Shown: positions 5,797 through 45,251 of the stretch, piece after piece
Position numbering within the stretch: the stretch's first letter is position 1
Layout of the letters: each line of letters opens with the position of its first letter
NCBI RefSeq assembly: GCF_049554935.1
Contig: NZ_CP186926.1
Coordinates: 960,001-1,024,000, forward strand
Origin: Methanocaldococcus indicus
GTDB lineage: Archaea > AGJL01 > Methanococci > Methanococcales > Methanocaldococcaceae
Length of the DNA stretch: 64,000 nt
Direction: 5' to 3'
The notes under the pieces: generated by a model
Seen by the model: the letters and a program-made list of their open reading frames with translations, nothing else
What the model was told of the DNA's origin: nothing
Database searches by the model: none
Made by a program: the position numbers and the translations under genes

Positions 5797-7105
<1,309 letters not shown>

Positions 7106-7163: not shown

Positions 7164-7328
7164 ATTTCCATACCGGGACGGTCTTATTTTAACAGGAGGC
7201 ACATTTTCAATCTGGCAGATAATAACGAGCATCATAAGAACAATGACGGTCTTATTTTAACAAAACATTTATTTATGTGCATACTTCAATATTATAGATC
7301 ATAAGAACAATGACGGTCTTATTTTAAC
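7164..7328 (-). CRISPR. Mini CRISPR array: 1 canonical and 2 chimeric repeats
   Basis: Canonical atttccataccgggacggtcttattttaac 7164-7193; atcataagaacaatgacggtcttattttaac at 7231-7261 and 7298-7328; leader to the right. Confidence 0.9.
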
Positions 7329-7713
7329 AGGAGGCACATTTTAGACATAATAATATAGCAACATAATATAGCAACGTTCTCATATATAAGCTTTTCGGGA
7401 CAAAAATTTTCGGAGGGTAGGTTTCCCTATTCATTTATATACCTTCGAACTTTTATAAAAATCTTTCTATTTAGTATTATTCCACTAAAAACCGTCTATT
7501 CTTAAAAACTAAACTAATTTATCAGGGATTAACCTAAAACTCATAAAAATCTCAGTAAATTATATAATCAAAATATATAAAATATTCAAAATATAAACCC
7601 CCTATGAATTTCTCTAAAAATCCTTTAAATTGAAAATAATCTTCTAAGACACTATAAAATCAAAAAATAAAAATTTTTAGCGTGATAATTATCATCTGAA
7701 TATATAAACTTAT
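7329..7713 (-). promoter_or_regulatory. CRISPR leader 1 with BRE/TATA
   Basis: Homologous along its length to 44860-45251; minus strand cgaaaagcttatatatg at ~7381-7397; 13-bp tandem duplication 7350-7375. Confidence 0.85.
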
Positions 7714-44081: not shown

Positions 44082-44859
44082 ATTTCAATTCCGAGACGGT
44101 CTTATTTTAACAAACTGCCATGTCATATTCTATGCACAGCCTATCCAATATTTCCATACCGGGACGGTCTTATTTTAACTTATTATTAAAAACCCACACA
44201 TCTCGTAGATTTAACCCATTTCCATACCGGGACGGTCTTATTTTAACTTATTATTAAAAACCCACACATCTCGTAGATTTAACCCATTTCCATACCGGGA
44301 CGGTCTTATTTTAACTTATTCTTTGGAAACCTCCCAGCTAAGCCATTTGATTTATCAAACAGTATTTCCATACCGGGACGGTCTTATTTTAACGAGGGGT
44401 GCCTCCCTGGCATTGAATTTGAATTGAGATTTCCATACCGGGACGGTCTTATTTTAACTAGTGATTACACTCCCCAAATTACTGTTGATGATGTCCAAAT
44501 TTCCATACCGGGACGGTCTTATTTTAACAATGTCTGGATGCAAAAAAATAGGGCTTAAAAATGCAATTTCCATACCGGGACGGTCTTATTTTAACTTAGG
44601 TTTAGCAACACCAGATACACTTGACATACCTAATTTCCATACCGGGACGGTCTTATTTTAACCATGACTGTGAAGAATGTAAAAAACTATATGTCATTTC
44701 CATACCGGGACGGTCTTATTTTAACGCTCTGGAAAAGGCTGGTGGATATACTAACACATATCTATTTCCATACCGGGACGGTCTTATTTTAACTGAACTA
44801 ATTAAAAAAGTAAATTCTGAAATTATCAAATTTCCATACCGGGACGGTCTTATTTTAAC
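44082..44859 (-). CRISPR. CRISPR array: 12 repeats (30 bp), 11 spacers (33-48 bp)
   Basis: atttccataccgggacggtcttattttaac x11 plus divergent distal repeat at 44082; leader on the right. Confidence 0.98.
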
Positions 44860-45251
44860 AGGAGGCACATTTTAGACATAATAATATAGCAACGTTCCCA
44901 TATATAAGCTTTTTGGTGCTAAAATTTTCGAAGGGTAGGTTTCCCTATTCATTTATATACCATCGAACTTTTATAAAAATCTTTCTATTCCATATTTTTC
45001 AATTAAAAACTTTTTATATCTAAAAACTAAACCAATTTATCAGGGATTTTTAAATATTAAAAGAAACAACAAAAAACTTCAAAAAATCTCAGTAAATTAT
45101 ATAATCAAAATATATAGAATATTAAAAATATAGACCCCCTCTGAATTTCCCTAAAAATCCTCTAAATTAAAAATATCCTTCTAAAATCCAATAAAATCAA
45201 AAAATAAAAATTTTTAGCGTGATAATTGTCATCTGAATATTTAAATTAATG
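44860..45251 (-). promoter_or_regulatory. CRISPR leader 2
   Basis: Homologous to 7329-7713; TATA-like gcttatatatg on minus strand. Confidence 0.85.

Follow-up and report, generated by a model that had tools for sequence, protein, structure and literature searches.

Does the small CRISPR array beside the cas genes of Methanocaldococcus indicus record an integration site that was moved by a change in its leader? The window, i.e. the whole stretch of 64,000 nucleotides that was analysed, contains a mini-array at 7164-7328 (array B), which adjoins cas2 and lies next to a leader of ~380 bp (leader 1). Part of this array is off register with respect to the repeat, and leader 1 contains a 13-bp tandem duplication. 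In an earlier note on this DNA it was proposed that the integration site is measured from a distal leader element and had been displaced by the additional 13 bp. The way in which archaeal integrases recognise the first repeat has begun to emerge only recently, from studies of histone-guided integration in Pyrococcus, and the genome analysed here contains natural experiments in a system related to it.

The type I-B locus and the layout of array B

On the basis of NCBIfam profile matches the cas genes of the window are assigned to type I-B, the subtype under which the locus had already been described. Cas7, Cas5b, Cas3, Cas4 and Cas1b are encoded by an operon on the + strand, with Cas2 on the - strand. 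Profile matches were obtained for Cas1b (TIGR03641), Cas2, Cas4 (TIGR00372, E 3.3e-20), Cas3, Cas5b and Cas7 (Cst2/DevR), while no NCBIfam model matched the 397-aa ORF at 1-1194 that occupies the Cas8b position. The cas1 gene is single in the genome, with one match to TIGR00287 in a whole-genome profile search. The cas2 gene (6842-7105) is located on the strand opposite to cas1, and the leader promoter may drive transcription through the mini-array into cas2.

Twelve arrays in the genome have a common leader of ~400 bp, and the terminal repeats at their far ends are degenerate. The degenerate repeat at the low-coordinate end of array C, the second array of the window, indicates that arrays B and C are read on the - strand, leader first; their leaders (leaders 1 and 2) can be aligned over ~400 columns. 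The spacers in the genome are mostly 32-41 nt long. The repeats belong to two families with a shared leader. Their sequences agree in the first 8 nt and in a few nt at the end, and the middle parts are unrelated. Since a single cas1 serves two families that are alike only at these ends, the mid-repeat sequence is not the main guide for integration. One spacer of array C (~44459-44498, 40 nt, first repeat family) is also present in array H (~935.4k, 38 nt, second family), showing that both families were fed from one target.

Further irregularities are observed in several arrays. Identical neighbouring spacer-repeat units occur in array C (44180-44285, 38-nt spacers) and in array F (~441.97-442.1k, 36-nt spacers), and reflect duplication of units by recombination or slippage. 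In array A (299409-300316) three substitutions distinguish the 11 newest repeats from the 3 oldest, and the variant carried by the newest is the terminal repeat of array C (44082-44111).

The distal repeat of array B, which in + strand order consists of 13 nt (7164-7176) and 17 nt (7177-7193), is identical to 11 of the 12 repeats of array C. As the earlier note had pointed out, it is followed by a 14-nt stretch of leader (7194-7207), which corresponds to the leader end and is identical to 7329-7342 and 44860-44873 in the two leaders (three matches to this 14-mer, compared with 0.07 expected by chance). Then follow 23 nt (7208-7230), 14 nt (7231-7244) and an isolated 17-nt part of the repeat at 7245-7261, again as had been noticed. 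The 37 bp in between, however, are not unique as had been thought, because their last 14 nt recur at 7298-7311, preceded by 36 nt (7262-7297), and the 17-nt repeat part is present once more at 7312-7328. The array thus contains two interlocked exact duplications, one of 31 nt (7177-7207 and 7312-7342) and one of 32 nt (7231-7262 and 7298-7329), where none is expected by chance (Table 1).

Table 1. Features of array B, its leader and the comparison array, in window coordinates; entries labelled reconstruction are putative.
Feature	Position	Strand	Remarks
cas1 (Cas1b, type I-B)	5856..6845	+	TIGR03641, E 1.1e-134
cas2	6842..7105	-	TIGR01573, E 4.8e-14; directly downstream of the mini-array in the direction of transcription of the leader
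Canonical 30-nt repeat	7164..7193	-	0 mismatches to the repeat of the second array (array C)
Target duplication 1, distal copy, 31 bp	7177..7207	-	100% identical to 7312-7342; reconstruction
Spacer of event 1, 37 nt, older insertion	7208..7244	-	reconstruction
Target duplication 2, distal copy, 31 bp (32 with 7262)	7231..7261	-	100% identical to 7298-7328/9
Spacer of event 2, 36 or 35 nt, newer insertion	7262..7297	-	reconstruction; both variants fit
Target duplication 2, proximal copy; now the leader-adjacent pseudo-repeat	7298..7328	-
Target duplication 1, proximal copy	7312..7342	-	spans the true leader-repeat junction 7328|7329
Leader 1 (leader B), ~380 bp	7329..7710	-	conserved across the 12 leaders of the genome
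Exact 2 x 13-bp tandem duplication	7350..7362 + 7363..7375	-	-22 to -47 from the junction
Array C, 12 repeats, comparison array	44082..44859	-	11/11 spacers in register
Leader 2	44860..45250	-	single copy of the 13-bp unit

The odd units of array B are no assembly error. Both 7178-7260 and 7233-7327 are spanned, with zero differences, by contigs of run X1, although X1 may be the source data of the assembly and is then not independent; run X2, from another study, covers 7228-7315 at a depth of ~80. A contig joining 7207 to 7363 and a contig with a gap of 13 were set aside, being best explained by paralogous leaders; short contigs cannot link the array to its leader. That short contigs from two runs carry the odd units also bears on the idea that these units are an assembly artefact or a diverged repeat variant of an old array, in which the leader-like 14 nt were captured or arose by chance. 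Repeat variants do exist in this genome, as is evident from the switch in array A and from the degenerate terminal repeats, but the 14-nt 3' part of the odd units is confined to array B in the genome and resembles neither repeat family, and the match of the 14 nt to the leader is exact. This explanation is therefore regarded as extremely improbable.

Reconstruction of two putative successive insertions

The history of array B was reconstructed on the - strand from window coordinates, with a leader, one canonical repeat and its flank as the starting point. Cuts at -14 and +17 with an insert of 37 nt, followed by cuts at 0 and +31 with an insert of 36 nt, yield exactly the observed 361 nt. A variant of the second step with cuts at -1 and +31 and a 35-nt insert is equally exact. 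In a brute-force decomposition, with duplication sizes of 26-35 and inserts of 30-41, the first event was off register in all solutions, with a leader-side cut at -14 to -10 and a far cut at +17 or less, and the second event lay within -1 to +5 of the junction. Cuts for event 1 at exactly -13 and +17, with a 30-bp duplication and a 38-nt spacer, also reproduce the sequence; this variant is allowed because one flanking base can match by chance. The sequence can be rebuilt only if the first event made a target duplication of ~31 bp shifted 13-14 bp into the leader, as had been suggested before. The shifted duplication is real, but it is not the only one, and its second copy is located at 7312-7342, abutting the leader, and not at 7245; the third unit (7298-7328) and the inner duplication had been missed.

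Deletion of both inserts and both duplications restores the canonical leader-repeat junction. The inserts of 37 and 36 nt fit the spacer sizes of the genome and their sequences are found nowhere else in it, apart from the 14 nt of the event 1 spacer that are re-duplicated by event 2. These properties leave little room for an origin without integrase, i.e. by replication slippage, unequal recombination or gene conversion between junctions of different arrays. Recombination does duplicate units in this genome, as indicated by the identical neighbouring spacer-repeats in arrays C and F and by the tandem duplications in two leaders, but it leaves unexplained why two 31-bp, repeat-length duplications each flank a unique insert of spacer length, why the inserted sequences do not occur elsewhere in the genome, and why their removal restores the canonical junction. 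Such an origin is considered very unlikely. Array B is instead probably the fossil of two successive non-canonical integrations by the sole type I-B Cas1-Cas2 integrase of the genome; the duplications themselves are observed, and the integrase is their most plausible author.

The ancestral state would have been a leader followed by one repeat. In event 1 the staggered cuts would have been made upstream of the normal sites, by 14 bp on the leader side and by 13 bp on the far side, placing the 37-nt spacer between 31-bp duplicates that each combine the 14-nt end of the leader with the initial 17 nt of the repeat. At the true junction both of these parts, the conserved leader head and the start of the repeat, were then still in place, and it is here that the leader-side cut of event 2 would have been made. 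The far cut of this event would have fallen 31 bp downstream, within spacer 1, so that target duplication 2 consists of the first 17 nt of the repeat and the first 14 nt of spacer 1. Since this 31-bp duplication holds only 17 nt of repeat, the far cut was placed by length, independently of the 3' half of the repeat. In the two new units the terminal 13 nt of the repeat, normally the source of the crRNA handle, are missing. The absence of this end from the units suggests that array B is probably non-functional, and its leader is probably decaying.

No protospacer of spacer 1 was found in the genome itself, and a 20-mer across the middle of this spacer gave 0 matches in viral contigs. The phage collection returned two chance-level matches, to phages of unrelated bacteria, and the plasmid collection nothing credible (E 0.04-0.5 across the phage and plasmid searches). 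Without a protospacer, the extent of spacer 1 lacks independent confirmation. The 104-nt stretch between the outer copies, compared with 17 genomes of the family, gave matches to the repeat core only, and a 21-nt junction pattern had 0 matches in metagenome contigs. A search of the metagenome contigs for Cas1 yielded 80 loci, with a best identity of 83% and no strain of this species among them; of the 20 loci that were examined, 3 carry an array behind cas1, in each case a normal one belonging to another species.

The 13-bp leader duplication and off-register events elsewhere

Leader 1 is the most divergent of the 12 leaders, with 83% identity to leader 2 compared with 85-93% for the others. 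The tandem copy of 13 bp that had been reported to distinguish it from leader 2 is indeed present, but it is not the only difference, as a private 19-bp deletion and substitutions further separate the two leaders, which have a mean column identity of 87%. The 13-bp unit occurs in two copies in this leader and in a single copy in leader 2 and the 10 others. It is located between a TATA-like box, which visual inspection places at -48 to -41 of normal leaders, and the head of the leader, i.e. the 14 nt directly upstream of the junction that are conserved across the genus. Leader 1 contains the sole proximal indel of more than 1 nt among the 12 leaders of the genome and the 46 leaders that were aligned from 6 relatives; the leaders of the relatives have no proximal indel that could serve as a test of a leader ruler.

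A self-comparison of all 12 arrays, which detects exact runs only, revealed three further duplications of 31 bp, one in array F and two in array K, each enclosing an insert of 34-38 nt. In array F, which has a normal leader, the duplicated segment comprises 23 nt of spacer and the first 8 nt of the repeat, corresponding to a shift of -23. In array K (400.9-401.4k) the leader-repeat junction is mutated and the repeats begin with GCT instead of GTT. One event in this array duplicated the last 15 nt of the repeat together with 16 nt of spacer (shift +15), and another duplicated 31 nt of leader ending one base before the first repeat (~-32). The internal site in array K reads CCT|C and the -14 site in array B reads TCT|A, both of which are similar to the normal junction CCT|G. 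A resemblance of the shifted site in array B to the repeat start (TAAAAT) was also considered and rejected, as the offset would then be 17 and not 14. The genome thus holds four off-register events, in addition to event 2, among ~89 inserts. All five aberrant duplications measure 31 bp at full extent, compared with 30 bp for the repeat, and the 3' half of the repeat may normally shorten the measured length by one base. That another integrase, with a stagger of 31 bp, was at work was considered and rejected, the genome having a single cas1.

Among the leader matches listed for relatives, 52 leader loci in 9 complete genomes of the genus were compared, with fragmentary genomes and 711 further matches left out. 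Arrays were present at 50 of the 52 loci, with ~689 spacers. Within these listed loci the same scan gave one comparable case, L079 (genome G016), in which a 30-bp unit that retains no more of the repeat than its first 7 nt has been duplicated from the true junction around a 34-nt insert. The foreign 23 nt of its pseudo-repeat resemble a ribosome-binding site and a start codon. The load of mis-registered units in the present genome is unusually high: the off-register rate is 4/89 here against 1/689 in the relatives (Fisher's p = 7e-4, for related genomes that are not independent and for exact runs only). Taken with event 2 (31 bp with 17 nt of repeat), L079 (30 bp with 7 nt) indicates that the far cut is measured, falling ~31 bp away irrespective of sequence, as judged from the two units. 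For the leader-side cut the leader head suffices together with the initial 7-17 nt of the repeat.

Another type of repeat alteration was observed in genome G005, in which an element of ~80 bp with internal palindromes is inserted inside the CRISPR repeat in at least six arrays (L052, L053, L056, L057, L058 and L059). The element splits the repeat at one constant point and looks like a small repeat-targeting mobile element.

If the distance to the integration site were counted from something bound within the duplicated unit or upstream of it, such as a promoter complex or a histone tetramer in a fixed position, an insertion of 13 bp would move both cuts 13 bp into the leader. The sizes agree in this single case, with a duplication of 13 bp and shifts of 13 or 14 bp on the leader side and 13 bp on the far side, and the decomposition with cuts at -13 and +17 is exact; relative to a cut at -13, the distal copy of the unit occupies the usual position (-22 to -34). 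If shifts were spread over -35 to +20, the chance of a shift within 1 of 13 would be ~5%. The private position of the indel in leader 1 points in the same direction, and in array K a mutated junction is accompanied by two off-register events, so that a lesion in cis and mis-registration co-occur twice. In addition, histone tetramers of P. furiosus occupy ~60 bp at the proximal end of the leader, extending into the repeat, and make integration more site-specific (PMC13748974), and the present genome encodes three histone-fold proteins.

On the other hand, the newer insertion, event 2, was made under the same leader at -1 to +5 and is thus unshifted, which counts against displacement provided that the leader duplication predates event 1, as measurement from the leader needs. 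The order of the leader duplication and event 1 can only be presumed, since one genome cannot reveal the order of events. The -23 event of array F occurred despite a normal leader. Leaders H and C2 (~11.2k) are 3 nt shorter within the last 14 nt, the head, yet all of their spacers, 7 and 5 respectively, are in register, and leader H (~935.8k), in which 11 bp are duplicated in tandem ~105 bp ahead of the repeat, likewise belongs to an array in register. In the second repeat family the region from -22 to -34 of the leaders contains 1 additional nt, and the cut is still at CCT|G. For leaders H and C2 and for the second family, the age of the length changes relative to the spacers is presumed. Furthermore, the maximal duplication gives -14 instead of -13, at a junction-like site (TCT|A). 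Leader B is the most decayed of the leaders (83% identity, 19-bp deletion), and in an array that had already lost its function an indel would come as no surprise. Positions -20 to -30 are dispensable in P. furiosus (PMC13748974). The simple form of the proposal, displacement of the site by the 13-bp duplication, is thus partly contradicted by a later event at the normal junction, by shifted events in arrays F and K without such a duplication, and by the in-register arrays of leaders H and C2, and it is considered unlikely. Two outcomes had been named in the earlier note as speaking against displacement. An integration position independent of the duplication is seen in part, in event 2 and in arrays F and K, whereas shifted events at leader 2 itself are not, with none among the 11 spacers of array C.

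A refined form can accommodate event 2. The proximal copy of the unit keeps the normal spacing and the distal copy lies 13 bp further out, so that registers 0 and -13 would both be available and both have been used. It is possible, but doubtful, that the tandem copy in this way gave two positions 13 bp apart and that one integration was recorded in each. The broader notion, that the cut site is set partly by distance from a leader-bound complex, for example a histone tetramer over the 13-bp unit, and not by the junction sequence alone, is likewise held only tentatively, as improbable on balance.

The favoured reason for the misplacement of event 1, although the matter is not settled, is occasional mis-docking. 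An error-prone integrase would have docked at the junction-like site TCT|A in place of CCT|G, with a pyrimidine at -3, and the 13-bp duplication of the leader would be an independent slippage event. Local mimicry alone does not suffice, since the junction-like -14 site is present in nearly all 12 leaders and was used only at array B, and occasional mis-docking leaves the agreement between the 13-bp duplication and the 13/14-bp shift as a coincidence. The link between duplication and shift is an attractive coincidence that is unproven, and a causal connection has a rather low probability. The size match of event 1 with the leader insertion nevertheless provides a cheap and precise testable hypothesis on the spacing of histones and leader, and, if measurement from the leader is true, array B constitutes a natural insertion experiment for a leader-anchored type I-B ruler.

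Comparison with known integration systems

Among the closest known systems is that of Haloarcula hispanica, which is also of subtype I-B with a 30-bp repeat. In H. hispanica the cut on the leader side is always made at the junction, whereas the position of the far cut is measured and does not depend on sequence (Wang et al. 2016, PMC4872114). Altered repeats gave aberrant duplications of 29-33 bp, and two mid-repeat motifs (11-15 and 18-22) are needed, from the second of which the ruler starts (PMC4872114). In contrast to what is stated there, the 31-bp duplication in array B was made with repeat positions 18-30 replaced, in L079 only 7 nt of the repeat were left, and one integrase serves two repeat families with different middles. 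The evidence in PMC4872114 comes from assays, whereas that of array B is a natural fossil.

The integrase of Pyrococcus furiosus is a closely related type I-B enzyme, and the repeat start GTT is similar. In this system a pyrimidine is required at -3 and positions -4 to -19 are needed for histone-aided integration, and the proximal histone site extends 7-10 bp into the repeat (Patel et al. 2026, PMC13748974). The proximal leader motif of P. furiosus resembles one in leaders of Methanococcales (PMC13748974). Off-target full-site integration by P. furiosus Cas1-Cas2 at non-repeat DNA, with cuts ~30 bp apart, is reported by Grainy et al. (2019, PMC6698737). The P. furiosus work consists of in vitro or plasmid assays, whereas the present genome is a natural record. 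In the available parts of these studies (PMC13748974, PMC6698737) no leader motif displaced by an insertion was checked for a shifted site.

Rulers are also described for E. coli type I-E (Goren et al. 2016, PMC5039180). With a non-cognate integrase in this system, the new repeat gained 2 nt of leader and lost 2 nt at the far end (Diez-Villasenor et al. 2013, PMC3737337, as discussed in PMC4872114). As in that case, event 1 slid the whole stagger and kept its length, but the shift of 2 nt described there arose from an engineered mismatch of Cas proteins and array, whereas the shift of 13-14 nt in event 1 is native.

Array B is a natural example of the known non-canonical integration by Cas1-Cas2. 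Nivala and co-workers reportedly described in 2018 neo-CRISPR units, in which non-canonical integration in genomes duplicates repeat-length non-repeat DNA around an insert of spacer length. Such units are mostly found far from arrays, whereas the events in array B overlap the leader-repeat junction and internal repeats, and as a consequence they report on the choice of the true integration site.
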